From the NCBI GenBank assembly GCA_037190965.1, contig JBBCKI010000013.1, forward strand, positions 11,998-75,997: a stretch of DNA of 64,000 nt. Reading direction: 5' to 3'. The DNA is from Chthoniobacteraceae bacterium. Its GTDB lineage: Bacteria; Verrucomicrobiota; Verrucomicrobiia; Chthoniobacterales; Chthoniobacteraceae. Positions 16,393 through 57,128 of the stretch are shown here, in pieces; the stretch's first letter is position 1, and every line of letters begins with the position of its first letter. Under the pieces are notes generated by a model. The model ran no database searches, was not told the origin of the DNA, and saw only the letters and a list, made by a program, of their open reading frames with translations. The translations under genes and the position numbers were made by a program.

Positions 16393-16830
16393 ATGAAGCA
16401 TCCCCATTATTCGTCCGTTTCGCGTCCGTCCGGTTTCACCCTTCTCGAGATCATGCTCGTTTTGGGGATCATCGCCATTCTTGTCAGCTCGGGTATTTAT
16501 CTGCTTTCGGGAAATATCGACGTGGCCAAGGAGACCCGTGTGGAGAGCGATATCAAAACGATCAGCACGCAGATCAAGACTTACGAGATGAGCAACTACG
16601 CGCCTCCGACTACGGAGCAGGGATTGTTGGCGCTGGTTGAGCCTCCCACGGCGGCTCCCGAGCCGCGCCGCTGGAAAAAGCTGCTGGAGGAGTTGCCCAA
16701 GGACCCGTGGAATCGCGACTATGTTTATCGTTTCCCCGGTATCAAGAATCCGGCGGGGTTCGATCTTTTTTCACTGGGGGCCGATGGCGTTGAGAGCACC
16801 GACGATATCGGCAACTGGAAGCAGCCGTGA
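16393..16830 (+). CDS. gspG: Type II secretion major pseudopilin GspG
   Basis: GFTLLEIM prepilin motif; PTTEQGL, DPW and SLGADG motifs. Confidence 0.93.
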   Translation: MKHPHYSSVSRPSGFTLLEIMLVLGIIAILVSSGIYLLSGNIDVAKETRVESDIKTISTQIKTYEMSNYAPPTTEQGLLALVEPPTAAPEPRRWKKLLEELPKDPWNRDYVYRFPGIKNPAGFDLFSLGADGVESTDDIGNWKQP

Positions 16831-17504
16831 GCCGACCGCGCCGTCATGGATGGCAGCGGGGGTTTACGCTTCTTGAGATCGTCGTTGTCCTTGCCATTGT
16901 GGCGGTGCTGGCTGCTTTCGGAGTGCCATTTATTTCCGGAATGATCCGGGAGGCGGCCATGCGGGCGCCTGTGGAGGAGTTGCAGGATCTTGCGAAGATC
17001 GTGCGTCTGCGGGCCATAAAAGAGGGCCGCCCTTACGAGATCGTATTCAATGAAGACGGTTTTTCAGGGCGTCTCTATAGTCTCTATTCCAGGCCGGACG
17101 GCGACGAGGAAGAGCTTGAGGAGGTCGATTCCCGGAATGGCGATGCGGAAAAGACCGATGGGTCCGATAACGAGACACCCCGCAGAACAGAAGACGAAAC
17201 AGAAGACAAAGCCGATGAGAACGGGGAGGAGAAAAAGCCGCTGCCGCCCGAGCCGCTGGTCGAATACCAGTACGCTCCGGGGATGGCCTGTCGTTTGCTT
17301 TTTTGGGGCAAAAGCCAGTGGCTTGAGCCCGGGCTGGAGACAAGAAGCCGCCGGGACTCGTCGCGCGACCGCTGGGTCTTCCAACCTTCGGGGCTTTGCA
17401 ATCCCGTGCGGGTCCAATTTCGCAAAGGCGACGCCTGGATCGAAGTCGCCTTTAACCCCCTGACGGCGGACGCCCAGGACGAGCGCTACTACTTCCCGGA
17501 GTAA
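16827..17504 (+). CDS. Minor pseudopilin (GspH-like)
   Basis: GFTLLEIVVV prepilin motif; position after gspG; acidic low-complexity insert. Confidence 0.8.
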   Translation: MSRPRRHGWQRGFTLLEIVVVLAIVAVLAAFGVPFISGMIREAAMRAPVEELQDLAKIVRLRAIKEGRPYEIVFNEDGFSGRLYSLYSRPDGDEEELEEVDSRNGDAEKTDGSDNETPRRTEDETEDKADENGEEKKPLPPEPLVEYQYAPGMACRLLFWGKSQWLEPGLETRSRRDSSRDRWVFQPSGLCNPVRVQFRKGDAWIEVAFNPLTADAQDERYYFPE

Positions 17505-17509
17505 ACCCC

Positions 17510-17908
17510 GTGCCCCATTCGCGTCAACATGCCGATCGCTCGGGGTTTACCCTTTTGGAGATCATGCTCGCGGTGACGGTCTTCGCCATCGCGGTGCTTG
17601 GCTTGCTCTCGGCGTTGCACACCACTGTGGATGCCGCGACAGGCTTTAACCGGGAGGCGCAGGTGGCGCTTTCGCTCCAGAACCAGCTTGCGGAGGCTCG
17701 CGAGGAACCATGGACCGGCCCGGGAAGCGAGACGAACGGCCCCGACGAACTCGGCGTGATGTACACCAAGGAGATCGAGCCGCTGGAATTGCAGAACCGG
17801 GACGGGCACGCGCTCGACCGGATGTACCGGCTCAAGATCACGGCAACCTGGGGAGCGGGCGATACGGAGGAAACCCAAACGGCGGAGGTATATGTCCATA
17901 AGCCGTAA
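17510..17908 (+). CDS. Minor pseudopilin (GspI-like)
   Basis: GFTLLEIMLA prepilin motif, 132 aa, operon position. Confidence 0.8.
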   Translation: MPHSRQHADRSGFTLLEIMLAVTVFAIAVLGLLSALHTTVDAATGFNREAQVALSLQNQLAEAREEPWTGPGSETNGPDELGVMYTKEIEPLELQNRDGHALDRMYRLKITATWGAGDTEETQTAEVYVHKP

Positions 17909-18605
17909 TCGCCGCAACCTCTTCCGCGCGCCCGGCTTCACGTTGCTGGAGCTGGTGATCGCGATGGCGGTATTCTCGATCATCGCGGTGGCGTTGTTTC
18001 GTGTGCTCGACGCCTGCCTACGGACGACGAACGAATTGCACGATGCCCAGCGGGTCACCCGGCAACTGGCGACCTTCGCGGAGTTGTGCCGAAAAACGTT
18101 TGCCACCCTCCCTCCCACCGCCAGTTTCCGGGTTCCGGCCAGCCTTGAGGCCGACGGCCAGGAAATTGAGTTCAAGGATGCTCCCGCCATTTTTGCCTTC
18201 GGCGATAGTCCGCTCAACTATGGCACGACGACACTTGCCGTTCGCCCCCGGGAGGACGGGCTCTTTGAGCTTTCCATCTCTCGCAGTGATTTTGCTCCGC
18301 CCAAGGACGAGAGCACGATAATCGGGGTGGAGGCTTCAGCCCCCTCCCTGGAGCCGGACGAAAAGGGGCGGTATTGGTTGCTGCTGGCTGGTGATCTTGA
18401 ATGGGCGCGCTGGCGTTTTTACGATCCTCGCGCCCACGATTGGGTGGAGTCCTGGACACGGAACACCCGGCCGCCGCTGGTGGAGCTTTCGCTCCTCCTG
18501 ACGGGAGACACCGTTCCATTCCGCGCCGTATTCCCCGTCGCCTTTGCCGAAGAATCCACACAGCAACCCGAGCAGGGTCGCCGCTCAAACAGGAGGAGGC
18601 GATGA
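17892..18605 (+). CDS. Minor pseudopilin (GspJ-like)
   Basis: GFTLLELVIA prepilin motif; W-x-x-x-W...P-x-LVEL C-terminal pattern. Confidence 0.8.
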   Translation: MSISRNRRNLFRAPGFTLLELVIAMAVFSIIAVALFRVLDACLRTTNELHDAQRVTRQLATFAELCRKTFATLPPTASFRVPASLEADGQEIEFKDAPAIFAFGDSPLNYGTTTLAVRPREDGLFELSISRSDFAPPKDESTIIGVEASAPSLEPDEKGRYWLLLAGDLEWARWRFYDPRAHDWVESWTRNTRPPLVELSLLLTGDTVPFRAVFPVAFAEESTQQPEQGRRSNRRRR

Positions 18606-19528
18606 GGTTGTTTTTTCGTGCAAAACACGCTCATGGCTCCGCGCTTTTGCTCGTCATGTGGGCTCTGGTCGTGATGTCGCTGGCGGTTTTTGGCGTCATC
18701 AAGTTTGTTGGCTACGGTTTCGATGATACGGTGGCGCTCCAGAAGGATTTTCGCGCCCGTCAACTCGCGGAGTCGGGGCTGGCAATCGGGCTGCATCCCC
18801 AGGTGAAGCCGGGCGATCCGGTTTTGCGGCAGAAACTTTCGGCCGAGGAGAGAATTGAAGTCCGGATCCGGCCCGAGGACGGGAGATTGCCCATCAACGT
18901 CATCATCGAGTTCGGCTTTTCCGACGTGCTCCGCGTGCTTTTTGAACAGTGGGGACTGGAGCCGGAGGACGCCTTCATTCTGGCGGATTCCCTGGCCGAC
19001 TGGGTGGACCGCAATGGTCGCGTCCGGCTTCACGGCGCGGAGCGGGAATATTATGAGGAGCAGGGATATCCCGAATACCCGAGAAATCGGCCTTTTGAAT
19101 CCGTGGAGGAGATGCTATCCGTGCGGGGAATGGACAAGCTAGTGGCAATGAAACCCGATTGGCGGGATTACTTTACCGTTCACGGCTCCGGGAAACTCAA
19201 CGTCAACGGGGCATCGGCGGACGCCATTTCCATTTACACCAAAGTCCCGCTGGAGCACGCCGAAGCGTTGGTAAAGCAACGCAACGGGCTTGACGGTCTT
19301 CCTGATACCGAAGACGATCTACAATTCTCTTCGTTGGAGCAATTTCGCGACGCGTTGGGCATGAACCCCGGTGACTTCGATGCGGTTTCGGGCCTGCTGA
19401 CCGTGGAGACAACGCTACTGCGCGTGGAGAGCAAAGGCCGCGTCGGAAATCGCGTGGTCACACTTTCAATGATCGCCAAGCTCGAACAGGGGAAACGCCC
19501 CGCCATCCTTGCAACCATGGAGAACTAA
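18602..19528 (+). CDS. gspK: Type II secretion protein GspK
   Basis: GSALLLVMW atypical prepilin motif; DWVD, GAE and LNVN motifs; ATG at 18602 overlaps the upstream stop. Confidence 0.88.
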   Translation: MRLFFRAKHAHGSALLLVMWALVVMSLAVFGVIKFVGYGFDDTVALQKDFRARQLAESGLAIGLHPQVKPGDPVLRQKLSAEERIEVRIRPEDGRLPINVIIEFGFSDVLRVLFEQWGLEPEDAFILADSLADWVDRNGRVRLHGAEREYYEEQGYPEYPRNRPFESVEEMLSVRGMDKLVAMKPDWRDYFTVHGSGKLNVNGASADAISIYTKVPLEHAEALVKQRNGLDGLPDTEDDLQFSSLEQFRDALGMNPGDFDAVSGLLTVETTLLRVESKGRVGNRVVTLSMIAKLEQGKRPAILATMEN

Positions 19529-19534
19529 CCCCCG

Positions 19535-20755
19535 ATGAGCAAACATCTTCTATTCTCTCCCTCGGCGGGGCTTGACTGGGAAATCTGGTCGCTCCACGGC
19601 GGCTCGCGCACGCCGACGCTGGAGGGGAAGACCACCGAGCCCGCCGATGCTGCCGCCGCCGCCAGCCGGGTGGTGATGGCGTTGCCCGTGAGCCAATGTC
19701 TGACGCTGCCGCTCTGGTTGACCAATGCGGAGCCCGGGTTGTACGAGCCGATGATTCTCTCCCAACTGGAGAAACGGGGGATGGCCCCGCGCAACGGAAC
19801 GCCGCCGATCTTCGACTACGGCGTCGTCGCCGTATCGGAGAATCGCACGCTGCTCCGCGTGACACTACTGCCTGGGAATTTCCCCGAGGCGCTCTGCTTT
19901 GCAAAGGCTCGCTGCTATGCCGGCTGGGCGGATTTTCTCCCGCTGCCGGAGAGCCAGATCGTATTGTGGCAGGAGCGGCAGAATCTCGTGCTGGCGGTGG
20001 CGCGGGGCGGCGAGGTGGTTTATACCCAGGTGCTCTCGCGATCGCTTCAAATCACCGCGGAGACGGCTCTTGAAGTTCGGGCGATCCGGCTTGCCCTGGA
20101 GGCGGAGCAGGTCGTTGAATCCATCACCGGAGTGACGGTCTGGGGAAGCTTCCCCGAAGGCGTTGACTGTCTGCAGCTTCTCAAACTTCCGGTGGATGAA
20201 GGGGAGCGCCCGGCTCCGTCCGCGGCGCGGGTGGCGACTGTCTCGACCCGCTCGCGAATGGTGCCTCTCCCGCTGCAAAAGACGCGCATCCTGCGCTTGC
20301 GGCGCGACCGGAACCTCCGGTTCGCGGGGATCGCCGCGCTTGGGTATGTCGCGCTCGTTTTGTTGATGGCGGTCTATCTTCGGTCCCTGCAGGCCAAAGC
20401 CTCCGCGTTGGTGGAGAGCGTCAAGCGCGACAAGCCCGCGGCCACCGAGTTGGAGCGCACGTCAGCGGCGTGGCGGGTCGTGGAGTCCGCCGTGGACCCG
20501 AACTATTACGCCATCGAACAATTTTACCTGTGCGCCGAGGCGCTTCCGCCCGTCGGGATCCGCTTCTCCTCCTTCGAGATCAAGGGGCGCGGCGTGCAGA
20601 TCAAGGGGATGGCGCGGAGTGTGGCGGAACTCTACAAATATGTGGATGTTCTGAAGCAGTCGCCCGTAATCTCCCGCAATAGCTGGAGGGTTGGGCAGCC
20701 GAGGGTGTTCCAGGACGACACGGTGGAGTTCAAGATCGAAGGGAACATGCAATAA
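19535..20755 (+). CDS. GspL-like inner-membrane platform protein
   Basis: Cytoplasmic N-domain, single TM near residue 270, periplasmic C-domain; operon position. Confidence 0.65.
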   Translation: MSKHLLFSPSAGLDWEIWSLHGGSRTPTLEGKTTEPADAAAAASRVVMALPVSQCLTLPLWLTNAEPGLYEPMILSQLEKRGMAPRNGTPPIFDYGVVAVSENRTLLRVTLLPGNFPEALCFAKARCYAGWADFLPLPESQIVLWQERQNLVLAVARGGEVVYTQVLSRSLQITAETALEVRAIRLALEAEQVVESITGVTVWGSFPEGVDCLQLLKLPVDEGERPAPSAARVATVSTRSRMVPLPLQKTRILRLRRDRNLRFAGIAALGYVALVLLMAVYLRSLQAKASALVESVKRDKPAATELERTSAAWRVVESAVDPNYYAIEQFYLCAEALPPVGIRFSSFEIKGRGVQIKGMARSVAELYKYVDVLKQSPVISRNSWRVGQPRVFQDDTVEFKIEGNMQ

Positions 20756-21312
20756 TGGCCAAGCTATCCAAAAAGGAGACACGCCTGCTGGTGATCTTTC
20801 TCTCCGTCATTTTCTTTGCGGGGAATGTGATCGCGCTTAAGACGTTTATGGGAGGGGTGACTCTCGCAAAAACGCAGATCCGCACGCTTACCGAGCAGAA
20901 GCAGGGGATTGACGCCCTTCTTGGTGATCGCGCTTATTGGGAGGAGCGCCAGAAGTGGATGGAGGATCACCAGCCGGTCATCGGGGACATGGGCGAAGCC
21001 CAAGGCGAGTTGATCGAGACCTTACAGAAGCTGGCGCGCGCCCGCGGAATCACGATTCTGGAGCAACGCATCATGGAGCCCAACCCCAAGCTGCAATACA
21101 AGAGGATTTCCGTCATGCTCAAGGTGATCGCGCCGATGAGCGACTTGGTCGACTGGCTGGCTGAGATCCAGTCGCCGGAAGCCTTTCACATTGTCGAGCA
21201 GTTGACGCTGGCGCTCGACCTCAAGAGCAAGGAGGAGGAACTGCCTGTGATTTGCACCCTTCAGGTGGGGCGTCTTTACCAATCCCACGGCGCAGGAGGA
21301 TTTGCCCGATGA
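20755..21312 (+). CDS. GspM/PilO-like protein
   Basis: LSKKE-RLL start followed by a TM and a coiled coil; operon position. Confidence 0.65.
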   Translation: MAKLSKKETRLLVIFLSVIFFAGNVIALKTFMGGVTLAKTQIRTLTEQKQGIDALLGDRAYWEERQKWMEDHQPVIGDMGEAQGELIETLQKLARARGITILEQRIMEPNPKLQYKRISVMLKVIAPMSDLVDWLAEIQSPEAFHIVEQLTLALDLKSKEEELPVICTLQVGRLYQSHGAGGFAR

Positions 21313-21872
21313 ACACCGCTTTGTCATCTTTCTCATTCACTCTTCTGATCGCGTCCGCCTCAATCCTCCCTGCGGTGGAGGCTGGCGGCGAGGCGATCTC
21401 CGCCCCGGCACCTGGGCCGGAGCGGTATCGCAATCTCTGGAGCAACTCGCCGTTCCTGCGGCCACTTAACGCGGCGGAAAGCTATGTTCTTACCGGCGTG
21501 GCCCGCTTCGACGGAAAGCCGATGGTGACGATGCTTAACACCGCCACCGGCGAGCGGATCACGCTCACGACCGAAAGCAATTCGCTGGGTTGGCGGCTGA
21601 TCGATCTGAACAACGACCCGAACCCCCGCAACATCATGGCGCGCGTCACCATCAATGGTGAGGAGGTGGCTATCCGTTTCAACGAACGGCAAATTAGCCC
21701 TGACGCCTTGCTCAAAGCCTCCGACGGCTCCGGGCGTACGTTGCCGTTTTCCACTCCGAGAGCGCCCGGAAGCATTCTCAAGGATCGGCTTCCGAAAACG
21801 AGCGAGATCAAGCCCAAGCCACGCGATCCCGAGAAGAACAAGCGCCAAAGAAGACCGCAAGCCTCCCAATAA
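21309..21872 (+). CDS. GspC-like exported protein
   Basis: Signal/TM segment, SPF motif followed by LTGV beta-rich domain; directly before the secretin. Confidence 0.5.
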   Translation: MNTALSSFSFTLLIASASILPAVEAGGEAISAPAPGPERYRNLWSNSPFLRPLNAAESYVLTGVARFDGKPMVTMLNTATGERITLTTESNSLGWRLIDLNNDPNPRNIMARVTINGEEVAIRFNERQISPDALLKASDGSGRTLPFSTPRAPGSILKDRLPKTSEIKPKPRDPEKNKRQRRPQASQ

Positions 21873-24184
21873 TGAAATCAACGAAGTTTGTCCTCCCATT
21901 TCTCTTCGCGCTTGTCAGCGCCCCGGTGCATGGAGCGCCGGATGTTTCCGGATCGCGGCCTGCCCTGGGCGGTTCCGTGGAGCCCCTGCCCGGCGATGCC
22001 AGCAAGGTAACGATCCAGTTTCCCAACACGCCCGTCTCCGATATTCTCGACATCTATGAACGGCTGATCGGCAAGCCGCTGGTGCGCGATTCCCAGATCT
22101 ACCGGGGGCCGAGCATTACCCTCATGCCGCCGGAACCCGTGGGAAAGGAGGAGGCGTGCCGGTTGATCGAATCGGTCCTGTTGCTCAACGGCTATCTGCT
22201 TCTGCCCGGGCCGGAGGGAAGCCTCAAGGTGGTGCTCAATGACCCCAAGGTGAAACAGAACCCGTTGCGCGACGGGATCACGATTTATACCGACGCGACC
22301 CAACTCCCCGGGGGCGACGCCATCGCGGCGTTTTTTCTGCCGCTGGAGTTCCTGACTCCCGACGACGCCAAGGCGCTCTTCGAAACGCATGTCCAGCTCA
22401 ACTCCTACGGGAAGGTTACCCCGATCTATGCGCCGCCCGCGTTGCTGATTACTGAGAATGTCTCGCTCATCAAACAGATCGTCGCGCTCAAACCGCTGGT
22501 GGACGTCGATCCTGCCTTGAGCCAGGCCCCCGTGAAGACGGAACTGGTGGAGATCAAGTACGCCGACGCGGTGGCGGTAGCGGAGATGATCCAGGCGCTG
22601 GTCGATAATCGCGCGCCGGGCGCACCCGGGCAGCCGCAACGCCCGGGACAGAGGCCGCAGGCGCACAGGCCACAGCAGGGGCAAGGGCAGGGGAGGCCGA
22701 GGCAGGTGCTCAACCAAAGTCAGCTTCTGAGCATCAACGCGCAGTTGATTCCTGACGCACGCTTGAATCGCATCCTCGTCGTCACCGAGCCCGCCAACTT
22801 TGCCTATATCAACGCGTTGATTAGCGAACTGGATCAACCCCTGGAGTTGAAAGCGCCGCTGGAGCGCCGGTTGAAGTATGTCTCCGCGGAGGACATTCTT
22901 CCCGTGCTAGTCAATATCCTTTCCGATAACGGCGAGGCACCGCCTGCCGGTCAGGCGGCACGGCCCGGCAACCCGCTGGGGAGCCGTTTGGGCGCGGGTT
23001 CGATGGGGCGTTCCCGTTCCAGCAATGGGCGTGGCGGCAGTTTCACCAACGCGGGCGGGGTCGATTCGTTGCCGGATCAACTGACCGAGCCGGTGGACGA
23101 CAACGCACCCCTCTCCGTGCAAATCGGCAAGACCCGTCTCATCGCGGACCGGCAGGCCAATTCGATTTTCGTGGTCGGGCCGCCCGAGAGCTATGACAAG
23201 GTGGCGACCATCATCGATCGGCTCGACCGCAAGCCGCCGCAGGTTTATCTGGCGACGATCATCGGGCAACTGACGCTTGATGAGAGCTCGCAGTTGGGCG
23301 TTGATTATCTGGTTCACTTCAACAAAAAACAGTTCTCTGGCGGTCTGCTTTCGGCGGGCGGGATGGCGAAATCGGTGAACGATATTCGCGACGGCATCGC
23401 CAGCGCCGTGACTCCGGCGGCCGGTGGGCTGACGGTTTTCGGCGCGGTGACCAACAACCTCGACGTGCTGGTGCGCGCGTTGGAGAGCACGAACCGGTTC
23501 AAGGTTCTCTCCCGCCCCACGGTTTACGCCGCCAATAACAAAAAGGCGGTGATCACCTCGGGTCAGCAGATCCCCGTGCCGACGAACATCCTACAAAGCC
23601 TCGATTCGAATAGCAGCCGCTTCCAGACCAACATCGATTACCGCGACGTGGTGCTGAAGCTGGAGGTTGTCCCGCTCATCAACAGCAGGAAGGAAGTGAC
23701 GCTCAAGATCGCGCAGGTCAACGACACGGTGGTCGGCGAGCAAACCGTGAGCAGCAACACTGTGCCGATCATCGGAACGGAACGGCTGAATACAACCGTG
23801 ACAATTCCCAATGCGAACACGGTCGTTCTTGGCGGGTTGATTACCGAGCAGCTTGAAAAGAAGGCGACCGGTGTGCCGTTGCTCAAGGAGATTCCCGTAT
23901 TGGGCAACGCATTCAAGAGCCGGTCGCAGAGCAAGGTGCGTCGGGAGTTGATCATCTTCATCCAGCCGATCGTGGTGGATGATGAAGAGTCCGCATTGCT
24001 GGCTAGCGAGAAGGAGGATGCGCGTACGGTGATCGGTCTCGACGCGTCGAATGTTTTCCCTTCCGCCGACGCGATCAATCTAATACCGCGGCCGGTCACT
24101 CTCGAAGTTGAGGAGCCTGCCAAGCCGGTTCAGTCCCTTAAGCCTGTCCCGTCTGTTACGCCCGCCAAGCGCTACCACAAATAG
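21872..24184 (+). CDS. gspD: Type II secretion secretin GspD
   Basis: N-domain repeats; VLGGLI and GVPLLKEIPVLGNAF...ELIIFIQP secretin motifs. Confidence 0.95.
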   Translation: MKSTKFVLPFLFALVSAPVHGAPDVSGSRPALGGSVEPLPGDASKVTIQFPNTPVSDILDIYERLIGKPLVRDSQIYRGPSITLMPPEPVGKEEACRLIESVLLLNGYLLLPGPEGSLKVVLNDPKVKQNPLRDGITIYTDATQLPGGDAIAAFFLPLEFLTPDDAKALFETHVQLNSYGKVTPIYAPPALLITENVSLIKQIVALKPLVDVDPALSQAPVKTELVEIKYADAVAVAEMIQALVDNRAPGAPGQPQRPGQRPQAHRPQQGQGQGRPRQVLNQSQLLSINAQLIPDARLNRILVVTEPANFAYINALISELDQPLELKAPLERRLKYVSAEDILPVLVNILSDNGEAPPAGQAARPGNPLGSRLGAGSMGRSRSSNGRGGSFTNAGGVDSLPDQLTEPVDDNAPLSVQIGKTRLIADRQANSIFVVGPPESYDKVATIIDRLDRKPPQVYLATIIGQLTLDESSQLGVDYLVHFNKKQFSGGLLSAGGMAKSVNDIRDGIASAVTPAAGGLTVFGAVTNNLDVLVRALESTNRFKVLSRPTVYAANNKKAVITSGQQIPVPTNILQSLDSNSSRFQTNIDYRDVVLKLEVVPLINSRKEVTLKIAQVNDTVVGEQTVSSNTVPIIGTERLNTTVTIPNANTVVLGGLITEQLEKKATGVPLLKEIPVLGNAFKSRSQSKVRRELIIFIQPIVVDDEESALLASEKEDARTVIGLDASNVFPSADAINLIPRPVTLEVEEPAKPVQSLKPVPSVTPAKRYHK

Positions 24185-48866: not shown

Positions 48867-48904
48867 TCGCAATTAAAAGAAGGCGATTTGCAATTCGAAG
48901 AAAG
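48867..48904 (+). promoter_or_regulatory. Putative AraC-family tandem binding site A (upstream of the regulator)
   Basis: TCGCAATTAAAAGAAGGCGAT-TTGCAATTCGAAGAAAG, GCAA at 21-bp spacing; TGnTA 17 nt downstream. Confidence 0.7.
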
Positions 48905-49001
48905 TTAGGCTTGGTTCGGCCTGTTAGAACAACGGCTTCATCCTGATCGTTCCCATTGTCCAACCGACACCAATTCTAGAAAACGCGGGATTGACCTTAC
49001 T

Positions 49002-49946
49002 TTGAGCCATTCGAACCACGAGAAAGCCCTTCTTTTTGAGCGCCCGGTCTGGAACAAGATCGACGGCACCTGGAAACCTTTGTACGGCGGATTTCTGGAC
49101 CTTGGCGCGAGCATTGAATGGCACGACTTCCGGGTGGATGAGCCGCTCCCCTGGTCCGACAGCTTCCACCAGAACAGCCTGGAGATTTGTCTCAACTACA
49201 CCGGGACGGCGGAACTGCGCCTCGGGTCGAAGCTGCTGAAGCTCGGCAACGAACAGATCGCCATTTATACCTCCCGGGACGAGCCGCCCACGGCGGTGCG
49301 CCACGCCAATTCCGCGCACCGGTTCATGACGCTGGAGTTTTCCATCGACTATCTCCGCTGCCAATTGGAGGGGATGATGGACGGAGTAATTCCGGGTATT
49401 CGCCGTTTTCTCGAAAGCCCGGAGCGCACCGACCTCTGGATGGAGGCTCGCCCCCTTCCGAGTACGCTTTTGGCGATCCGCGCCAGCATGCTGGAGCCCC
49501 CGGTCGGCTCCGCGGCACTCCCAGCGTGGTATCGGAGCAAGATTCTCGAAGTGCTTGCCCAGACGGTCTTTGTTGCCGACGCCCCGGACGAACTTTTCTG
49601 CGAGCGCCATAAGCGCCTTAATCGCGAGCGGGTCGACCGGGTGCGCTACCTGATCCAGCGCGACATCGAGAATCCGCCCAGCCTCGACATGCTGGCCCAG
49701 GAGGTCGATTGCAGCCCCTTCTACCTCAGTCGCCTTTTCGCGGAAGAGGCCGGGGTTTCTCTGCCCAAATACCTCCGCCTCAAACGGGTGGAGAAGGCGG
49801 CGGAGCTGATCAAGGAAAGCGGGATGAGCGTTACCGACGCCGCCATGGCGGTCGGTTACTCCAGCCTGAGCGCCTTCCATAAGGCGTTTGTGGAGCGGCA
49901 CGGGGTTTCGCCAAGCCAGTATGGGTTGAAGAAGGGGCGGAAGTAG
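49002..49946 (+). CDS. AraC family transcriptional regulator (PchR/YbtA-like)
   Basis: C-terminal PPSLDMLAQEV...AAMAVGYSSLSAFHKAF...GVSPSQY; TTG start. Confidence 0.93.
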   Translation: MSHSNHEKALLFERPVWNKIDGTWKPLYGGFLDLGASIEWHDFRVDEPLPWSDSFHQNSLEICLNYTGTAELRLGSKLLKLGNEQIAIYTSRDEPPTAVRHANSAHRFMTLEFSIDYLRCQLEGMMDGVIPGIRRFLESPERTDLWMEARPLPSTLLAIRASMLEPPVGSAALPAWYRSKILEVLAQTVFVADAPDELFCERHKRLNRERVDRVRYLIQRDIENPPSLDMLAQEVDCSPFYLSRLFAEEAGVSLPKYLRLKRVEKAAELIKESGMSVTDAAMAVGYSSLSAFHKAFVERHGVSPSQYGLKKGRK

Positions 49947-50060
49947 GGGGATGCTGCAGGTTAGGCCGGTGGTTTAGCCTGTTTGTGCCGCCTTCAGAGG
50001 GAGTGATATGAGTGATGATGCAGTGCGGAAAGAACTCCATTGACACTTCAATGGAAATCC

Positions 50061-50099
50061 AAAAAAACGCTTCCCGTTAATTGATTGGCGGGAAGCGTT
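50061..50099 (-). terminator. Intrinsic terminator of the PEP-CTERM gene
   Basis: AACGCTTCCCG / CGGGAAGCGTT stem with an A7 run on the + strand (U tail on the - strand). Confidence 0.8.
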
Positions 50100-50122
50100 G
50101 AATATTGAAGGGAAACCGTCAA

Positions 50123-50926
50123 TCAGGCTTGCACTGTGCGCCTCCGGCGAAGGGCAAAGACGCCAGCCGCTCCGCTGGTGAGAAGCAGCGCCCATGTGGA
50201 GGGCTCGGGAACGACCGAGTAATTGTAAACGGTGTCCGTCTGATCGAGACGCACTTCATAAACCTGCGCATGCGGCACGGCGGAGAACTGGATCTCGAAG
50301 GAGTTGATCGTAGCGTCGACGCTCCACTGGAAATAATAGGTATTTCTGTAAAGATCCTGCTCCGGTTCGCCCGGAGGCGTGAACGTTCCAGTGTAAACCT
50401 GACTGATCAGAAAGGTGAAATTAGCGTCCAGTTCAACGGTTGATCCTCCGGAGGTTACAAAGAGGGTTGGTCCGCTAAATAGATCGTATCCAGATGCCTC
50501 ACCGATATCGATCTGGAAACCGATGGTTCTTACGCCGGAAAGCATGTTCACCGGCCTGATTCCTATGGTGCCCCCGAGGGAGTTTGCCTCCACAGCTCCC
50601 GCGCCGAAATAGAGGCTCTCGCCTCCGATGTACGGGCCGCCACCGCTTGCTCCATTGGCTACTTTATAGAGCTGTGCGGCGTGGCCCGCGCTGCCGAGGC
50701 TGCTCGGAGCTGAATTATTCCAAGACGTATTCCAGGCATTCGTTCCGGGATATCCGCCGTAGTAGCCCTTATAAACGTTCCAGTTATTGTTGCCGTAGTT
50801 AAAATTATCGAGTTGCCAGCCATCCCACGAGGTGTTGCCGGTAAAGGGGACATTGACTATCTGTGCCAGTGCTGCTCCCGAGAGGGCAAGCGAAGATAAG
50901 AGCAAGAGACTCAGTTTTCGGATCAT
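50123..50926 (-). CDS. PEP-CTERM sorting domain surface protein
   Basis: Signal peptide; C-terminal VPEPSTWALL-TM-RRRR; Tyr/Trp/Gly/Asn-rich body. Confidence 0.93.
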   Translation of the reverse strand: MIRKLSLLLLSSLALSGAALAQIVNVPFTGNTSWDGWQLDNFNYGNNNWNVYKGYYGGYPGTNAWNTSWNNSAPSSLGSAGHAAQLYKVANGASGGGPYIGGESLYFGAGAVEANSLGGTIGIRPVNMLSGVRTIGFQIDIGEASGYDLFSGPTLFVTSGGSTVELDANFTFLISQVYTGTFTPPGEPEQDLYRNTYYFQWSVDATINSFEIQFSAVPHAQVYEVRLDQTDTVYNYSVVPEPSTWALLLTSGAAGVFALRRRRTVQA

Positions 50927-50960
50927 TTCCCAATGAGTATCAGCTCTCCATATCGCACAG

Positions 50961-50998
50961 CTATCTTCGAATTGCGATTTTGTGTCTCTCTTTTGCGA
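50961..50998 (-). promoter_or_regulatory. Putative AraC-family tandem binding site B (upstream of the PEP-CTERM gene)
   Basis: Minus strand TCGCAAAAGAGAGACACAAAA-TCGCAATTCGAAGATAG; TGnTA 18 nt downstream. Confidence 0.7.
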
Positions 50999-51024
50999 CG
51001 GTCCTACTGCATCCGGATAGAGGA

Positions 51025-51062
51025 CCGCAAGAATCAGTAAACTGAGTGCAAGTCGAAGGAAG
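51025..51062 (+). promoter_or_regulatory. Putative AraC-family tandem binding site C (upstream of the prepilin gene)
   Basis: CCGCAAGAATCAGTAAACTGA-GTGCAAGTCGAAGGAAG; TGnTA 17 nt downstream. Confidence 0.65.
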
Positions 51063-51190
51063 TTCTAAGAAAAGGAACGTGGTAGCTTCATCTTTCTTCG
51101 AACTCGTTGCGCAATACATCCGCTGCAGGGTTGACTCCTGACCGGCTGGATTGCCGGGACTCCGAAGGGAACCGAGTATATCACCATTTA

Positions 51191-52090
51191 ATGAAAGATT
51201 CGCAATCCTCCAGTTTTCCCCAGAACTGTTTGAAGGTACCTGCCAGAGTCTCCGCATTCACGGTTGTTGAGCTGCTGGTCGTCGTAGCAATTTCGGCCGT
51301 CGTTCTTGGAATGGGAGGGGCGGTTTTTAGTTCTGTTCGCAAAAGCGGGATGATGGCGCAGGAGCTTGCGGCAGGCCGGACGTTGATTACGGCTTATCTC
51401 TCATACGCGGCTGAAAATAATAATCGGCTGATGCCGGCGTTCGATCAGCGTCCCAACAACGTCTGGTTTGAGCCCGACAAGAAGGAGCTTTCCGGCTCCG
51501 GTGCGCTTTCGCAAATGGTTTATCGGTATCCTTACCGGCTCGCACCCTATTTTGGCTACAAAATGGATGGGGTGATCCTTAGCAAAGCGAACTCCAGCAA
51601 AGTTCAGGATGTTCGGGCCACGCAGGGGGCTGACATGGCCTACTATGAAACTAGTGCCATGCCGATGTTTGGAATCAACGAGACCTTTGTGGGTGGGAAA
51701 ATCGTAAAATTGCCCACGCGAATGCAGCCGGGGGAATTTGGAGAGTATGGATACGATCCCCTGTCAGCCACTGAAACGATCGGTAATACTCTGGGCGGCA
51801 GGAGGATAATTGTGTTTGCCTCGGCCGGGTCGGGAACCGGATCCAACGCAATGGGCGGGTATTTCAGGGTTGATAGTCCGACTACGGCTTCCCAAACTTG
51901 GTTGAACAGCCATTGGGCGGCCAATAGCGACCCCGCCACCTTCGGACGTGTGGATGCCCGCTTCGAAGGCCGGGCGCTGTGTGTTTTTCTCGATGGAAGT
52001 GTCGAGTCGTTAACCATTGATCAACTCAAAGATATGCGGTTCTGGTCGAAAAACGCAGCCGAGCAGGATAATCCCAATTATGCGCCGTAA
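51191..52090 (+). CDS. Prepilin-type N-terminal cleavage/methylation protein with H-X9-DG-like C-terminus
   Basis: AFTVVELLVVVAI class III signal; C-terminal ARFEGRALCVFLDGSV (F-X9-DG); ATG at 51191. Confidence 0.88.
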   Translation: MKDSQSSSFPQNCLKVPARVSAFTVVELLVVVAISAVVLGMGGAVFSSVRKSGMMAQELAAGRTLITAYLSYAAENNNRLMPAFDQRPNNVWFEPDKKELSGSGALSQMVYRYPYRLAPYFGYKMDGVILSKANSSKVQDVRATQGADMAYYETSAMPMFGINETFVGGKIVKLPTRMQPGEFGEYGYDPLSATETIGNTLGGRRIIVFASAGSGTGSNAMGGYFRVDSPTTASQTWLNSHWAANSDPATFGRVDARFEGRALCVFLDGSVESLTIDQLKDMRFWSKNAAEQDNPNYAP

Positions 52091-52259
52091 ACGCAGCTAA
52101 TGCGCCCGCAGGGAGGTGGCTTTTTGAATCTGAAAAAGCAACGCCACCATTCTTAAACTTTGCATTTTTTCCGTGTCTACGTTTCACTGCGTCCCCTCCC
52201 CCCGGGGTTTGACACTGGGGCGAAGGGATTAGCCTCCTAGCTGCGACTTTTTTCAACCT

Positions 52260-53321
52260 ATGAAAACCAACCATTCCGAACTCAGTGAACAGTGGCGCGA
52301 ATTGATTGCCAAAGAACCCAATCTCCGCATTCGCGATGCGGCGACCCGTCTTGGGGTTAGCGAAGCTGAGCTTCTTGCCACCCGCGTCGGGGCCGGTGTG
52401 ACCCGCCTTGCGGCTGCCAACTGGTTCGAACTCGTCCAGGAATTGCCGAAGCTTGGCCGCGTGATGTGCCTCACCCGCAATGAACACGCCGTTCATGAGC
52501 GTTACGGAGTGTTCCGCGAAATCGCTTTCATGGGTCACGGTGTGGCTCAGGTGGTTGGTCATGATATTGACCTTCGTTTGTTCATGGGCCACTGGCACAT
52601 CGGGTTTGCCGTAACGGATGAAACCAAGGATGGCCCTCGCAACAGCCTCCAGTTCTTCGACGCCGACGGCACCGCGATCCACAAGGTCTATCTCCAGGCG
52701 GAGAGCGATCAGGCTGCTTACGCAGAGCTGGTGAAGAAGTACCTCTCCGATGATCAGGCGCAGACTCAGTGCGTTACGCCGCTGGCTCCCGGACGTCCTG
52801 AGCGCCCCGATGAACAGGTTGACGTCGCCGGTTTCCAGAAGGGCTGGCTCGAACTCAAGGAGTCGCACGCGTTCTTCATGCTGATGCATAAGTTCGGCGT
52901 CGCCCGCGAGCAGGCGCTTCGCCTCGCTCCTGAAGGGTTTGCGTGGCAGGTGGACAAAAACTCCGCCCAGATCATGCTGGAGAAGGCCGCTGCGGACCAG
53001 ACTCCGATCATGGTCTTTATCGGCAGCGAAGGGTGCATCCAGATTCACACCGGCGAAGTCACGAACATCAAGCGCTTTGGCGGGGAATGGATCAACGTTC
53101 TCGACGACGAGTTCAACATGCACCTCCGCGACAGCGCCGTGGCTCGCGCCTGGATCGTCCGTAAGCCGACCTACGAAGGGGGCGTTGTGACGTCGCTTGA
53201 GCTTTACGACGAGAAGGGGAACAATCTCGTTCTCTTTTTCGGTAAGCGCAAACCCGGCCAGTTGGAAGACCCGGTTTGGGCCGCCCTCGCCGAGTCGCTG
53301 CCCAAGGAGCAGGTGGCATGA
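52260..53321 (+). CDS. hemS: Hemin-degrading/trafficking protein HemS/ChuS/HmuS
   Basis: RIRDAATRLGVSEAEL, LTRNEHAVHE, IDLRLF, SLQFFD, CIQIHTG and FNMHLR motifs. Confidence 0.95.
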   Translation: MKTNHSELSEQWRELIAKEPNLRIRDAATRLGVSEAELLATRVGAGVTRLAAANWFELVQELPKLGRVMCLTRNEHAVHERYGVFREIAFMGHGVAQVVGHDIDLRLFMGHWHIGFAVTDETKDGPRNSLQFFDADGTAIHKVYLQAESDQAAYAELVKKYLSDDQAQTQCVTPLAPGRPERPDEQVDVAGFQKGWLELKESHAFFMLMHKFGVAREQALRLAPEGFAWQVDKNSAQIMLEKAAADQTPIMVFIGSEGCIQIHTGEVTNIKRFGGEWINVLDDEFNMHLRDSAVARAWIVRKPTYEGGVVTSLELYDEKGNNLVLFFGKRKPGQLEDPVWAALAESLPKEQVA

Positions 53322-54253
53322 CGCGACTCTTCAAGAGCGCAATTTTGGGAGTGTTGTTGGCGGCCGCCGGAAACGGGGCCGCCTTCGGCCATGATGGTTC
53401 TCATGACCATTCTCATGGTCAGGAAGCCTCGACATCCACGATTCCATTGCCCAAGAACCCGCAGAGCATCGTCTCGGTGGGTGGCGGGGTCACGGAAACG
53501 ATCTTCGCGCTTGGCGCGGAGAAGGCGCTTGTCGCCGTGGATACCAGCAGCGTTTATCCCGAGGCTGCCACGAAACTCCCGCAGTGCGGTTATCAGCGTA
53601 CCCTTTCCGCAGAGGGGGTCGCCTCCCTGAAGCCGGACCTCATCTTCCTCGCCGGTGCCGCGGGCCCACCCTCGGCCATCGCTCAACTCGAGAAGCTGGG
53701 CATCCCCAATGTCCGCCTGAACGAAGCTCACACGCTGGAGGCCGCCAAGGAGAATATCCTCAAAATCGGCGCCACGCTCGAACGCGAGGAGAAGGCGAAG
53801 GAACTCGTGGCGCAGATCGACGAAAAGATCGCCGCGCTTCCGAAGCCAACCAGCCGCCCGAAAGTGCTCTTCATCCTCAGCGCGGGCGGGGGGAGAACCC
53901 TCGTTTCCGGCAAAGGGACCGCCGCTGACGCGATGATCGAACTCGCGGGAGGCGAAAACGTCGCCGCCGAGTTTACGAGCTTCAAACCGGTCTCCTCGGA
54001 GGCGCTGGTTGCCATGGCGCCCGAAGTGATTCTCACCACTTCCCGGACGGTCGGTGAGTTTCGTGACGGCGGGATTGAGAAAGCGCTCCCCGGGATCGCT
54101 TTGACCCCCGCGGGCAAGGCCAACCGGATTATCGTGATGGAAGATCTCTACCTGATGGGGTTTGGCCCGAGGGTGGGGGACGCCCTGGTTGATCTTTCGC
54201 GGCAGTTTCACCCGGCATCTGGGGCCCCTGGGGCGAACGTCAAGCCGCAGTAA
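53318..54253 (+). CDS. hmuT: Heme ABC transporter periplasmic binding protein
   Basis: Signal peptide; GGGVTETIFALG, VDTSSVYP, GYQRTLSAEG (heme Tyr) and GFGPR motifs; ATG at 53318. Confidence 0.92.
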   Translation: MTRLFKSAILGVLLAAAGNGAAFGHDGSHDHSHGQEASTSTIPLPKNPQSIVSVGGGVTETIFALGAEKALVAVDTSSVYPEAATKLPQCGYQRTLSAEGVASLKPDLIFLAGAAGPPSAIAQLEKLGIPNVRLNEAHTLEAAKENILKIGATLEREEKAKELVAQIDEKIAALPKPTSRPKVLFILSAGGGRTLVSGKGTAADAMIELAGGENVAAEFTSFKPVSSEALVAMAPEVILTTSRTVGEFRDGGIEKALPGIALTPAGKANRIIVMEDLYLMGFGPRVGDALVDLSRQFHPASGAPGANVKPQ

Positions 54254-55314
54254 TGGCGAGAGCCCTCGTTGCCTCCCTCGGTTGGAGAACGCGGCCCCGT
54301 CTTTTGGTGATCGCGCTCGGCCTTGCGTCGATCGCGATCCTTTTCTGGTCTGTCGGCTCCGGCGCGATGGCCATCAGTTGGAACGAGATTCTCGATAGCC
54401 TCTGGAACGCTTATGGCCGGGAGGGGCATCGCAATGACGCCCTGATCTGGAATCTCCGTCTCCCGCGGATTCTCATGGGCTTTGCCGCCGGCGGAGCCCT
54501 CGGGATTTGCGGCGCGGCATTGCAAGGGCTTTTCCGGAATCCTCTTGCCGACCCGGCTTTGATCGGGGTTTCCGGCGGGGGCGCTCTGGGAGCGGCCTTC
54601 GCCATTGTGCTCGGCGTGCCGAAATTCCTGGCAGGCATCCCGCTTCTTTCTCTCTATTCCGTGCCGCTTGCGGCCTTTGCGGGGGCTTTTGCCGCAACCG
54701 CGTTGGTCTATAGCGTGGCCACGTGGCAGGGGCAGGTGCAAGTAGCCACTCTTTTGCTGGCGGGCATCGCGATCAATGCCATTGCGGGATCGATCATCGG
54801 CTGGTTCACTTTCATGGCGACCGACGCGCAATTGCGCGAGCTGAGCTTCTGGAGTCTCGGCAGCGTGGGCGGCGCGAGTTGGGAGAGCCTGGCCGGGTCT
54901 GTCCCCTTTGTGGCGGTGGCCTTGTTCCTCCTCCTGTTTTATGCGCGGCCTTTGAACGCGCTTGCCCTTGGCGAATCCAATGCAAAGCACATGGGAGCGC
55001 CTGTTGAGTCGATGAAACGCGGCATCGTTATCGCCACGGCCCTGGCGGTTGGCGCGGTGGTTTCATTTACCGGGACCATCGGTTTCATTGGGCTCGTGGC
55101 TCCGCATCTTTTCCGGCTGGTTGGCGGCCCGGATCACCGCTGGGTTCTTCCCGGTTCCTTTCTGATGGGCGGTTGCCTTCTGTGCGTGGCCGACGTGATT
55201 GCCCGTGTGGCGGCGATTCCCGCGGAGATTCCTGTCGGGATTGTCGTTTCGACCATCGGGGCTCCTTTTTTCCTTTTCCTGCTCATGAGCGAAAAGAAGC
55301 GCAACGGGGGATAA
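54253..55314 (+). CDS. hmuU: Heme ABC transporter permease (FecCD family)
   Basis: LRLPR, QGLFRNPLADP, IGFIGLVAPH and EIPVG motifs. Confidence 0.93.
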   Translation: MARALVASLGWRTRPRLLVIALGLASIAILFWSVGSGAMAISWNEILDSLWNAYGREGHRNDALIWNLRLPRILMGFAAGGALGICGAALQGLFRNPLADPALIGVSGGGALGAAFAIVLGVPKFLAGIPLLSLYSVPLAAFAGAFAATALVYSVATWQGQVQVATLLLAGIAINAIAGSIIGWFTFMATDAQLRELSFWSLGSVGGASWESLAGSVPFVAVALFLLLFYARPLNALALGESNAKHMGAPVESMKRGIVIATALAVGAVVSFTGTIGFIGLVAPHLFRLVGGPDHRWVLPGSFLMGGCLLCVADVIARVAAIPAEIPVGIVVSTIGAPFFLFLLMSEKKRNGG

Positions 55315-55336
55315 ACCGGTTGATTGTCAGACGCTC

Positions 55337-56146
55337 ATGCTGAAAGCAAAAAACATCACCGTGAAACGCGGGGCGAATACGCTCCTCTGCGGTGTCGATG
55401 CCGTGGCCAAACCGGGTGAGCTTCTTGTCATTGCCGGGGTGAACGGGGCAGGCAAAACGACGCTGCTGAGGGTTTTGTCGGGTGAAATTGCTCCAAGTCA
55501 CGGAGAGGTGTTTTGGGATGCCGCTCCTCTGAAATCGTTGAAAAGCCGCGAAATGGCAAAGATGCGTGCGTATCTCAGCCAGCGGACGACTTGCGCGGTG
55601 GCTTTCCGCGCCATCGAGATCGTCCGTCTCGGGGTGGAGGCGTCGGAGACTTTCGCGCAGGGCGACACCGATGCGGAAACTCTCGCGATCGCGGCCTTGG
55701 AGCTTTGCGGCGTGGGGCATTTGCAGGAGCGGCTTGTCGATACGCTCTCTGGCGGCGAGCAGCAGCGCGTCCACTGGGCGCGCGTCATCGCGCAACTTGG
55801 CGGGCAGTCGAGCGCTTCCCTCGCCGGGAAATGCCTGTTGCTGGACGAGCCGATTTCCGCTCTCGACCTGGCTCACCAGCACGAGATGATGGCGCTGGCG
55901 AGATCGCTGGTGGAGCGCGGCTGCGCCGTGATCGCGGTGCTTCACGACCTCAATCTTTCCGCCGAGTACGGCGATAGAATGCTATTGCTGGGCAACGGCA
56001 GCGTCGTGGCGGAAGGCAGTCCGCGCGAAGTATTGACCCCCGCCATCATTCACACCGCGTTCGGCTTGCGGGCAAGGGTTGAGGCAAACCCGGTCTCCGG
56101 ATCCCCGTGCGTCTTTGTTGAAAGAAACGCCCGAGGTCCAGTTTGA
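55337..56146 (+). CDS. hmuV: Heme ABC transporter ATP-binding protein
   Basis: GVNGAGKTT, LSGGEQQRVHWAR, LLDEP and LHDLNL motifs. Confidence 0.93.
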   Translation: MLKAKNITVKRGANTLLCGVDAVAKPGELLVIAGVNGAGKTTLLRVLSGEIAPSHGEVFWDAAPLKSLKSREMAKMRAYLSQRTTCAVAFRAIEIVRLGVEASETFAQGDTDAETLAIAALELCGVGHLQERLVDTLSGGEQQRVHWARVIAQLGGQSSASLAGKCLLLDEPISALDLAHQHEMMALARSLVERGCAVIAVLHDLNLSAEYGDRMLLLGNGSVVAEGSPREVLTPAIIHTAFGLRARVEANPVSGSPCVFVERNARGPV

Positions 56147-56401: not shown

Positions 56402-56668
56402 TTACGGTTTCTTTTTCCTGCCCGGAGCGGGCTTGGCCTTGGGGGCCTTGACCTTGGCTTTTGGGGGCGGTTTTGTTCCCTTTTTTACCGGAGCAATGGG
56501 TTTGCTCCGGGGGCGTGGGACATCCTCACGGGTGACTCCGCCCTCCCCATCGCGTTGAATCAGCCACGCGATGTAAGCCGAAAAAGATTGCCCAAAACCG
56601 CGTTTTGCGGCGATTTCGAGACCCGTTTCGTATATACGGTCGTCTAAGGTGATGCTGGTGCGTTTGAT
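56402..56668 (-). CDS. Ribbon-helix-helix-like protein with Lys/Pro/Ala-rich tail (ATC start; absent from the ORF track)
   Basis: Hand translation (I/M)KRTSITLDDRIYETGLEIAAKRGFGQSFSAYIAWLIQRD...KKGTKPPPKAKVKAPKAKPAPGRKKKP*; AGGAG 6 nt upstream of ATC; in-frame TAG five codons upstream. Confidence 0.75.
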   Translation of the reverse strand: MKRTSITLDDRIYETGLEIAAKRGFGQSFSAYIAWLIQRDGEGGVTREDVPRPRSKPIAPVKKGTKPPPKAKVKAPKAKPAPGRKKKP

Positions 56669-56930
56669 AGGTAGCTCCTGCTAGTTTGAGGTTTGGACTG
56701 ATTGCCAAGCGGCCGTGTCCTGAAACCCTCGAACGGCTTTCTCACTCCACCAAGGGACCTGTAGAAGGCATGCATCAAAGGGTTGGTTCCTGCGACTTCG
56801 AGCCGCGACTCATCAGAGGGCGTCGAGGATATTACGACGTATCACACTCGTCCAGTGATAAAAGGAATTGTTTTTTTGGGACAAGAAACGCTTGCCTGAT
56901 GCTCTTTTGGATATTACTCAATCATATATC

Positions 56931-57128
56931 ATGGGTGGTGTCACACAGCGTACTTCGATCTCCCTGCCGAAGCATCTTTTCGAAAAGGGGCAGCAAATCG
57001 CAAAGAAACGTCGTCGGAATTTCTCGAACTACGTCGCTGACCTTATTGCATCGGATTGCATCACCCGCCCGGTTGGGTCGGATTCCGTCCCGGATGAGGA
57101 AAATAAGCGCGGGAAATCGGGCGATTGA
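56931..57128 (+). CDS. Ribbon-helix-helix (CopG/Arc-like) protein
   Basis: QRTSISLPKHLFEKGQQIAKKRRRNFSNYVADLIASD; ATG at 56931. Confidence 0.75.
   Translation: MGGVTQRTSISLPKHLFEKGQQIAKKRRRNFSNYVADLIASDCITRPVGSDSVPDEENKRGKSGD

Follow-up and report, generated by a model that had tools for sequence, protein, structure and literature searches.

Gene Organization of the Locus

We analyzed a 64,000-nucleotide stretch of DNA from a Chthoniobacteraceae bacterium (the window; its source is hereafter the host), which holds a heme-uptake locus where genes for a prepilin-type protein and a PEP-CTERM protein lie upstream of hemS and hmuTUV. An earlier note on this DNA had listed seven genes; all seven lie where it placed them, and family scans confirm the AraC regulator, the PEP-CTERM protein, HemS, HmuTUV and, at a borderline score, the prepilin. 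The features are:

49002..49946, + strand: AraC-family regulator (PF12833)
50123..50926, - strand: PEP-CTERM protein, candidate hemophore (PF07589 and TIGR02595 above cut-off), with a "YH domain" at residues 23-238 that contains Tyr106 and His219
51191..52090, + strand: prepilin-type protein of a heme-locus subfamily, with an A|FTVVE leader, a large alpha-beta insertion, an invariant Tyr152 and an F-x9-DG motif
52260..53321, + strand: hemS, cytoplasmic heme-binding/degrading protein of the HemS/ChuS/PhuS kind (PF05171 matched twice)
53318..54253, + strand: hmuT, periplasmic heme-binding protein (heme-binding periplasmic proteins matched at E 1e-52 to 1e-36)
54253..55314, + strand: hmuU, permease (FecCD)
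55337..56146, + strand: hmuV, ATPase (PRK13548 heme ABC ATPase, 275.8 bits against a cut-off of 261)
50965..50978, no strand: short sequence, a candidate operator of low confidence, repeated upstream of the AraC gene and of a paralogous pilin gene on contig C30
48887..48900, no strand: reverse-complement copy of that short sequence, upstream of the AraC gene

HemS matches the solved structures of PhuS, HemS and ChuS at E 1e-87 to 1e-60, and the tyrosine of the HmuT GYQR motif aligns with solved heme-binding periplasmic proteins. From the HmuRSTUV-type inventory, the locus has the HemS/ChuS protein and the heme-type ATP-binding cassette (ABC) importer (HmuT with its axial Tyr, HmuU and HmuV) and lacks the TonB-dependent heme receptor (TIGR01785/TIGR01786). 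The PEP-CTERM protein carries the signal peptide (judged by eye), PEP motif, hydrophobic helix and basic tail of an exosortase substrate. The pilin, whose prepilin leader scores 20.8 bits on PF07963, slightly below the 21.2 cut-off, has the class III leader with F1 and E5, the long N-terminal helix and the fold of type IV pilins and pseudopilins. The window had also been said to lack a TonB receptor, tonB and exbBD, and this is borne out for the first two: whole-genome searches gave no TonB receptor or TonB_C match on the window's contig, while for exbBD no family search covered the window.

A Pilin Subfamily Linked to Heme Loci

HemS occurs in 14 of 61 relatives, and 9 of the 17 regions around those HemS matches encode a homologous pilin (29-39% identity). 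A profile of this pilin, built without the leader, matched 47 of 401 genomes of the class, every one at 147 bits or more, and 778 clusters of a large library at E 1e-10; word-index protein searches gave 2 and 3 matches. HemS is present in 29 of the 401 genomes, and the pilin in 17 of these 29 versus 30 of the other 372. The earlier note had proposed to test for such linkage across Verrucomicrobia, and the pilin does recur at heme loci: of 49 loci other than the host's own, 25 have a heme-degrading gene no more than 6 kb away (21/43 and 4/6). The enzymes concerned belong to three unrelated families, namely HemS, heme oxygenase (PF01126) and a HutZ/HugZ-like group, of which the one protein tested scores below the NCBIfam cut-offs.

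No heme receptor was found near the pilin in either of two overlapping sets of 54 and 80 loci. The larger set, the best 80 of 279 named pilin loci, also overlaps the 49 loci above and includes some short ones; 44 of its loci have a heme-degrading gene, 32 have hmuT or hmuU, 67 have a YH partner or a DRW partner (see below), three have a receptor of another type, and 71 have heme genes, the AraC regulator or a palindrome described under Regulation. Outside the class, the pilin is found in 6 more genomes among 151 of the phylum, and three of these six loci read hemS-hmuTUV-DRW-pilin. Cultured carriers include Verrucomicrobium sp. BvORR034 and BvORR106 (L182 and L194) as well as Kiritimatiellota B12222 and B1221 (L188 and L203), the latter two with the order hemS-hmuTUV-DRW-pilin. 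The linkage of the pilin to heme loci, which spans orders and classes in many gene orders, is not due to chance.

Some pilin loci have other surroundings. Kelch beta-propeller genes, often accompanied by DUF4198 and with no heme enzymes, are linked to the pilin at L091, L095, L096, L102, L106, L107, L109-L111 and L130, where the cargo may be different. A pilin with the palindrome upstream lies on a short contig (L202) of a Phycisphaerales metagenome-assembled genome (Planctomycetota), which could be mis-binned. In several long proteins the pilin domain is C-terminal (L037:1983-3776; P0007, P0015, P0035 and P0044), and in L037 and P0015 a DRW-type domain and a PEP-CTERM motif run in frame into the prepilin leader.

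The YH Domain of the PEP-CTERM Protein

Residues 23-238 of the PEP-CTERM protein form a family without a name, which we call the YH domain. It gave no Pfam or NCBIfam domain match at E 0.01, the known hemophore families HasA, HmuY, NEAT and HtaA included, and a search of the PDB with the family profile returned no sequence match. Tyr106 is present in 45 of 45 YH sequences and His219 in 38 of 45, which gives the domain a conserved Tyr/His pair; the motif His of the pilin is not conserved.

The YH domain occurs in 43 of the 401 genomes: 24 have the pilin only, 13 a TIGR01786-type receptor only, three both and three neither. Put differently, 16 of the 43 lack the pilin, of which 13 have a heme receptor (at least 300 bits) and the other three weak matches, and the domain appears in only 3 of 334 genomes with neither pilin nor receptor. 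The source sequences of the YH profile came almost all from pilin loci; the test is not circular, because this profile still finds receptor genomes without the pilin. In 13 loci of 12 genomes YH adjoins the receptor within a few kb, and three of these loci also have hmuTUV and hutZ; no prepilin was detected in these 13. Twenty regions around YH matches were fetched, of which three were pilin loci of the host's genus; the receptor-locus set conserves the Tyr in 28 of 28 sequences and the His in 27 of 28. From this invariance and the gene neighbors we infer that YH probably binds heme through Tyr106 and His219. The domain is likely a new hemophore family, even if a pilus route for heme is wrong.

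Some of the receptor-linked YH proteins (at L212, L214, L216-L219 and L221) have no PEP-CTERM motif and end in another C-terminal domain, which suggests a second sorting route. At 15 of 54 pilin loci, the unrelated DRW family, with no overlap with YH, replaces or joins the partner; it is sometimes fused to the pilin (L037, P0015). The YH model (predicted local distance difference test score, pLDDT, 87) is a jelly-roll sandwich, known hemophores are absent among its listed fold matches, and an Atlas search with the domain gave scores that reach just 0.76. Foldseek returned nothing at E 0.001 for the YH model or for the pilin model.

Pilin and Receptor as Apparent Alternative Partners

hemS loci without the pilin often have an 800-residue receptor, and five of six tested pass TIGR01786 (L071, L076, L077, L081 and L083). 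We counted partners at 34 full-length hemS loci (phmmer score >250, >300 residues; weaker HemS-like rows, such as L034 and L078, were dropped): 19 have the pilin, six a heme receptor, none both and nine neither, an exclusion with a Fisher p of 0.004 among kin that are not independent. Within the host's genus, HemS and two copies of the pilin are present in four of five relatives and missing from the fifth, and no heme-receptor match was obtained in any of the five. Only 11 of 31 branches of the HemS tree are supported, and therefore we read no order of replacement events from it. As the YH domain is found with the pilin or with the receptor, these two look like interchangeable partners of one candidate hemophore.

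Structure of the Pilin and a Modeled Complex

The pilin model (pLDDT 92.5) has a helix at residues 4-54 and a head roughly double the normal size. Pilins make up all of the best fold matches, at weak Z scores of 3.5-5.0, and 5hz7 is among the fold matches. The A|FTVVE leader has Ala, not Gly, at -1; F1 is conserved in 114 and E5 in 128 of 134 family members, and Tyr152 (alignment position 131) is invariant in the 134 sequences. The label H-X9-DG, given to this pilin at first, does not hold: the motif reads F-x9-DG and has His in 52 of 134 family members. The motif His had been considered as a heme ligand and was rejected, because a residue so poorly conserved cannot have that role. The pilin gave no match to Pfam SBP_bac_10 or the NCBIfam H-X9-DG family; Atlas places it at 0.96 to SBP_bac_10 clusters, a likeness by features only.

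When the pilin head, YH and heme were folded together, the complex scored 0.63 versus 0.21 for the best control, a mark reached by 116 of 157 solved pairs and by 2 of 215 mismatched ones in a calibration that holds only roughly here. Separate runs share at least 65% of contacts, with a partner pLDDT of at least 82, and the modeled contact patches flank both invariant tyrosines in sequence.

Receptors, Machinery and Heme Synthesis in the Host Genome

The host genome (4.2 Mb, 73 contigs, 97% complete) was searched for a heme receptor away from the locus, a check already outlined in the earlier note. There are two TonB-dependent receptors, on contigs C62 and C45, and two TonB_C matches, on C1 and C30. 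On TIGR01786, which has a cut-off of 323.75, these receptors reach 81.7 and 52.5 bits, and a profile from six heme receptors of relatives reaches at most 31 bits; by these two profiles, no heme-type TonB receptor is present in this 97% complete assembly. The C45 receptor comes after genes that, from their sequences, we take to be cobalt/nickel-transport-like.

The genome has five secretin matches, one exosortase, one prepilin peptidase (PilD), five strong assembly ATPases, four weaker PilT-like matches and two FUR-family genes. Against the two TonB-dependent receptors stand 62 PEP-CTERM and 68 prepilin-like open reading frames (ORFs). Of the 68, just two are members of this pilin subfamily, and the YH domain is confined to three ORFs, all at the same two places. 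The second place is a cassette at C30:205-8360 (L040), with a paralogous pilin and PEP-CTERM proteins of 835 and 1552 residues, whose N-terminal YH-family domain sits on a stalk of autotransporter-type repeats; heme genes are absent from the cassette's surroundings, and similar cassettes are seen in two other genomes (G005 and G301). At window positions 16393-24184 (+), 25 kb upstream of the heme locus, there is a type II secretion-like operon that contains gspG, three further pseudopilins, gspK, a PilN/L-like gene, gspM and a secretin; no ATPase of this operon was seen among the genes scanned. It is a candidate host machine for the pilin.

Searches of the host genome detected neither HemH nor HemE. 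A two-domain AhbAB-like gene and HemB are present (C19:67259-68023 and C1:45703-46662, respectively), which we read as a siroheme-dependent pathway, and the host seems to use this route to heme. We considered heme auxotrophy and rejected it as likely, given these two genes and the presence of HemH in 20 of 51 genomes tested. Because HemB and the AhbAB-like gene were found, the host more likely uses heme for its iron than needs it as an essential cofactor. Elsewhere in the genome, a diverged HemS-like protein is encoded at C32:60724-61737, and its relatives (L038) give a PF05171 match; members of a flavodoxin-like family recur beside such diverged genes and at heme loci.

Regulation

Orthologues of the AraC regulator (50-70% identity) stand beside hemS within the genus. 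High-scoring relatives occur at the receptor loci L071, L083 and L085 and at 13 of 54 pilin loci, so this subfamily is common to pilin-type and receptor-type heme loci. Many pilin loci have a palindrome, TATTGAGACTNAGTCTCAATA, which resembles a Fur box. It lies near 21 of 53 pilin loci; a motif trained on these loci themselves gives 40 sites in 365 kb near them versus 9 in 336 kb further off. Of the best 80 of 279 named loci, 33 have the palindrome nearby. It marks loci without heme genes too. No palindrome site above 8 bits was found at the host locus, and none at the six other-class loci. The short repeat at the host locus, a pattern picked after the sites had been seen, lies upstream of three genes, those for the AraC regulator, the PEP-CTERM protein and the C30 pilin, which account for three of its seven genome matches; it is a candidate AraC site. 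A sigma-70 scan gave no sites versus 2.6 in shuffled sequences.

Downstream of hmuV lie two small divergent ORFs, at 56868-57128 (+) and about 56540-56680 (-), which appear ribbon-helix-helix-like by eye; the former has no match in Pfam.

Proposed Mechanism and Alternative Explanations

To our knowledge, heme import in Gram-negative bacteria is held to require a TonB-dependent receptor. A conserved pilin, heme loci without a receptor and a partner protein found also beside true heme receptors together point to an undescribed heme entry route, as far as gene content can indicate. Comparative genomics partly supports the interpretation first given to the locus. We lean, with no great confidence, towards pilin-dependent, TonB-independent heme capture, in a locus that serves to gain iron from heme and in which a dedicated pilin does the outer-membrane step in place of a TonB-dependent receptor. 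The independence from TonB is something we infer, since the genome does encode a TonB system along with two TonB receptors.

In this mechanism, the PEP-CTERM protein would be exported, processed by the exosortase and bind heme outside the cell through Tyr106, aided by His219. PilD would process the pilin, which would then join, as a minor or tip subunit, a type IV pilus or type II pseudopilus whose genes lie elsewhere; the genome has such machinery. The enlarged head of the pilin may then dock the loaded YH binder, as modeled, and retraction or pseudopilus turnover would carry heme through a secretin to the periplasm, the weakest step of the proposal. From there HmuT and HmuUV would import heme, and HemS would free or buffer its iron, in keeping with the roles of these families. 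The AraC protein would control the locus, whose place is taken in many relatives by the Fur-box-like palindrome.

Several observations weigh against this proposal. The host genome retains TonB and two TonB receptors, and no secretin operon is positionally tied to the pilin. Nine of the 34 hemS loci have neither partner nearby; three of these lie in genomes with the pilin elsewhere (G002 twice, G005), one more is from G432 and two are on short contigs. Over the 401 genomes, pilin and heme receptor show no mutual avoidance (three genomes, G193, G194 and G319, have both; p 0.74, in a heme-receptor search that scored only two candidates per genome), because most genomes carry neither. No heme-degrading gene lies within 6 kb at 24 of the 49 pilin loci; these loci come from kin that are not independent, nine of the pilin genomes being a single genus with heme oxygenase, which overstates independence, and the family searches scored just two to seven candidates per genome. 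The YH fold resembles carbohydrate-binding modules (best Z 9.2, root-mean-square deviation 3.2, 135 residues aligned, a level that the tool rates as common). Finally, the modeled interface is less conserved than the rest of each protein (pilin 0.16 versus 0.45; YH 0.29 versus 0.38), and the complex score of 0.63 leaves the heme itself unscored and was compared with controls that contained no sister pilin.

The alternative that survives best, though we hold it to be rather unlikely, is that the pilin serves as an export or display adaptor for the YH hemophore, with heme entering otherwise, for instance through one of the two atypical TonB receptors or a porin. The modeled contact suits cargo recognition as much as hand-over, the genome offers a type II operon (gspG-K,L,M,D) besides the five strong assembly ATPases, and for 11 of its 25 DG-type pilins some PEP-CTERM gene is no more than 3 kb away, as general export pairing would give. 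However, no prepilin stands beside YH at the 13 receptor-type loci, and 13 genomes with YH and a receptor have no match for this pilin; since YH occurs without the pilin where a receptor is present, it does not generally need the pilin for export. The pilin is also kept where its partner switches to the DRW family, and an adaptor leaves the missing receptor unexplained.

A second alternative dispenses with the filament: both proteins would form an inner-membrane periplasmic heme sink or relay to HmuT, and heme would cross the outer membrane passively. The cleavage motif of the pilin is conserved, its model retains the pilin fold (Z up to 5.0), a periplasmic role is already filled by HmuT, and YH genes beside outer-membrane receptors suggest an outside location, as does the example of ZepA, a PEP-CTERM zinc scavenger described as an exoprotein in the available text of PMC10957091. 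We consider this relay distinctly unlikely, even though, before processing, both proteins carry inner-membrane helices, a Legionella pilin is described as helping iron uptake without PilD, PilT or PilQ (PMC13170364, available text), and Akkermansia muciniphila PEP-CTERM proteins are given as higher in intracellular than outer-membrane fractions (PMC4960237, available text).

It is very unlikely that the locus is an iron-regulated module with a cargo other than heme, be it a different tetrapyrrole, an iron chelate, or an attachment surface of glycan or hemoprotein. The fold similar to carbohydrate-binding modules would fit such a cargo, as would the C30 cassette with no heme gene nearby and the roughly half of pilin loci without nearby heme genes, several of them near kelch and DUF4198 genes; in contrast, three unrelated heme-degrading enzymes and a heme-type HmuT recur beside the pilin, YH lies beside TIGR01786-type receptors, and many loci without heme genes share the AraC regulator or the palindrome (71 of 80 have one of these or heme genes). 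Chance neighbors in a genome rich in such genes (62 PEP-CTERM and 68 prepilin-like ORFs) are refuted by the linkage data, which hold across orders and classes in many gene orders, and by the confinement of the two subfamily pilins and three YH ORFs to the same two places.

Returning to pilin-dependent heme capture, a wider scheme is conceivable, with the balance of probability slightly against it: TonB-independent import throughout the Planctomycetes-Verrucomicrobia-Chlamydiae (PVC) group, with a minor pilin and a PEP-CTERM binder per nutrient on a shared type IV filament, the pilin, equal in function to a heme receptor, accepting heme from a new hemophore family and retraction drawing that heme through a secretin. 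Soil and water are rich in Verrucomicrobia, whose genomes contain dozens of prepilin-type and PEP-CTERM genes without an assigned use. Through this locus, a defined cargo is linked to a single pilin subfamily and a single PEP-CTERM domain, and as heme binding is easily measured, the role of such pilins becomes directly testable. If true, the pilus route would be a categorically new import mechanism, and its PVC-wide form would at one stroke assign a function to two large orphan families, with heme as a colored, assayable cargo.

Comparison with Known Systems

The locus shares HemS, HmuT, HmuU and HmuV, as true members, with the hmuRSTUV, chuA-STUV and phuR-STUV loci as these appear in the available text of PMC6449446 and PMC5827684. 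It differs from them in having no heme receptor or TonB and in the pilin and PEP-CTERM genes upstream of hemS; a receptor-type version occurs in the same class as the host.

Hemophore families include NEAT besides HasA, HmuY and the HtaA/ChtA CR domains. Like the last three, YH belongs to a secreted or surface protein that can be encoded beside a heme receptor, and it shares with the CR domains a conserved Tyr as the likely axial ligand (PMC6449446; PMC12494546; PMC12106395, in their available text). The YH-beside-receptor loci show the same arrangement as HmuY-HmuR and HasA-HasR. YH differs from known hemophores in its lack of Pfam, NCBIfam and PDB sequence matches, its jelly-roll fold, its PEP-CTERM anchor and a partner that may be a pilin. 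ZepA, in the available text of PMC10957091, is an extracellular PEP-CTERM zinc scavenger under a Fur-family regulator and near TonB receptors. It is likened here by description only: a PEP-CTERM protein acts as a metal scavenger in that system too, whereas its cargo is zinc and the word pilin is absent from that text.

The PVC prepilins with N_methyl and SBP_bac_10 (DUF1559) domains, or H-X9-DG motifs, share with this pilin the leader, a length of about 280 residues, the terminal x9-DG and secreted-protein neighbors (PMC8567305, available text). In contrast to them, our pilin has no family-model match, its motif His is not conserved, and its neighbors define a cargo pathway.

The minor pilin ComP, for which 5hz7 appears among the fold matches of our pilin, gives DNA uptake by type IV pili its cargo specificity. 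A mutant Neisseria PilQ admits heme with the help of PilT (Chen et al., 2004, as reported in the available text of PMC6449446). Those cases involve DNA as cargo or a laboratory point mutation, whereas the module described here is natural, dedicated and conserved, with a small nutrient as its proposed cargo. The MUL2 locus of Akkermansiaceae contains core parts of a type IV-like pilus for glycan attachment and likewise ties such a pilus to the way Verrucomicrobiota use nutrients; the available text shows neither a PEP-CTERM partner nor heme genes (PMC13174399). The full-text literature yielded no paper on a PEP-CTERM hemophore or on a pilin in Verrucomicrobiota heme loci, within a scope that leaves out most subscription papers and supplements, so that a mention in a supplementary table is possible. 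The locus is a real variant of heme uptake that is conserved and apparently unpublished, and what this analysis adds is that pilin and receptor replace each other around a single Tyr/His domain.

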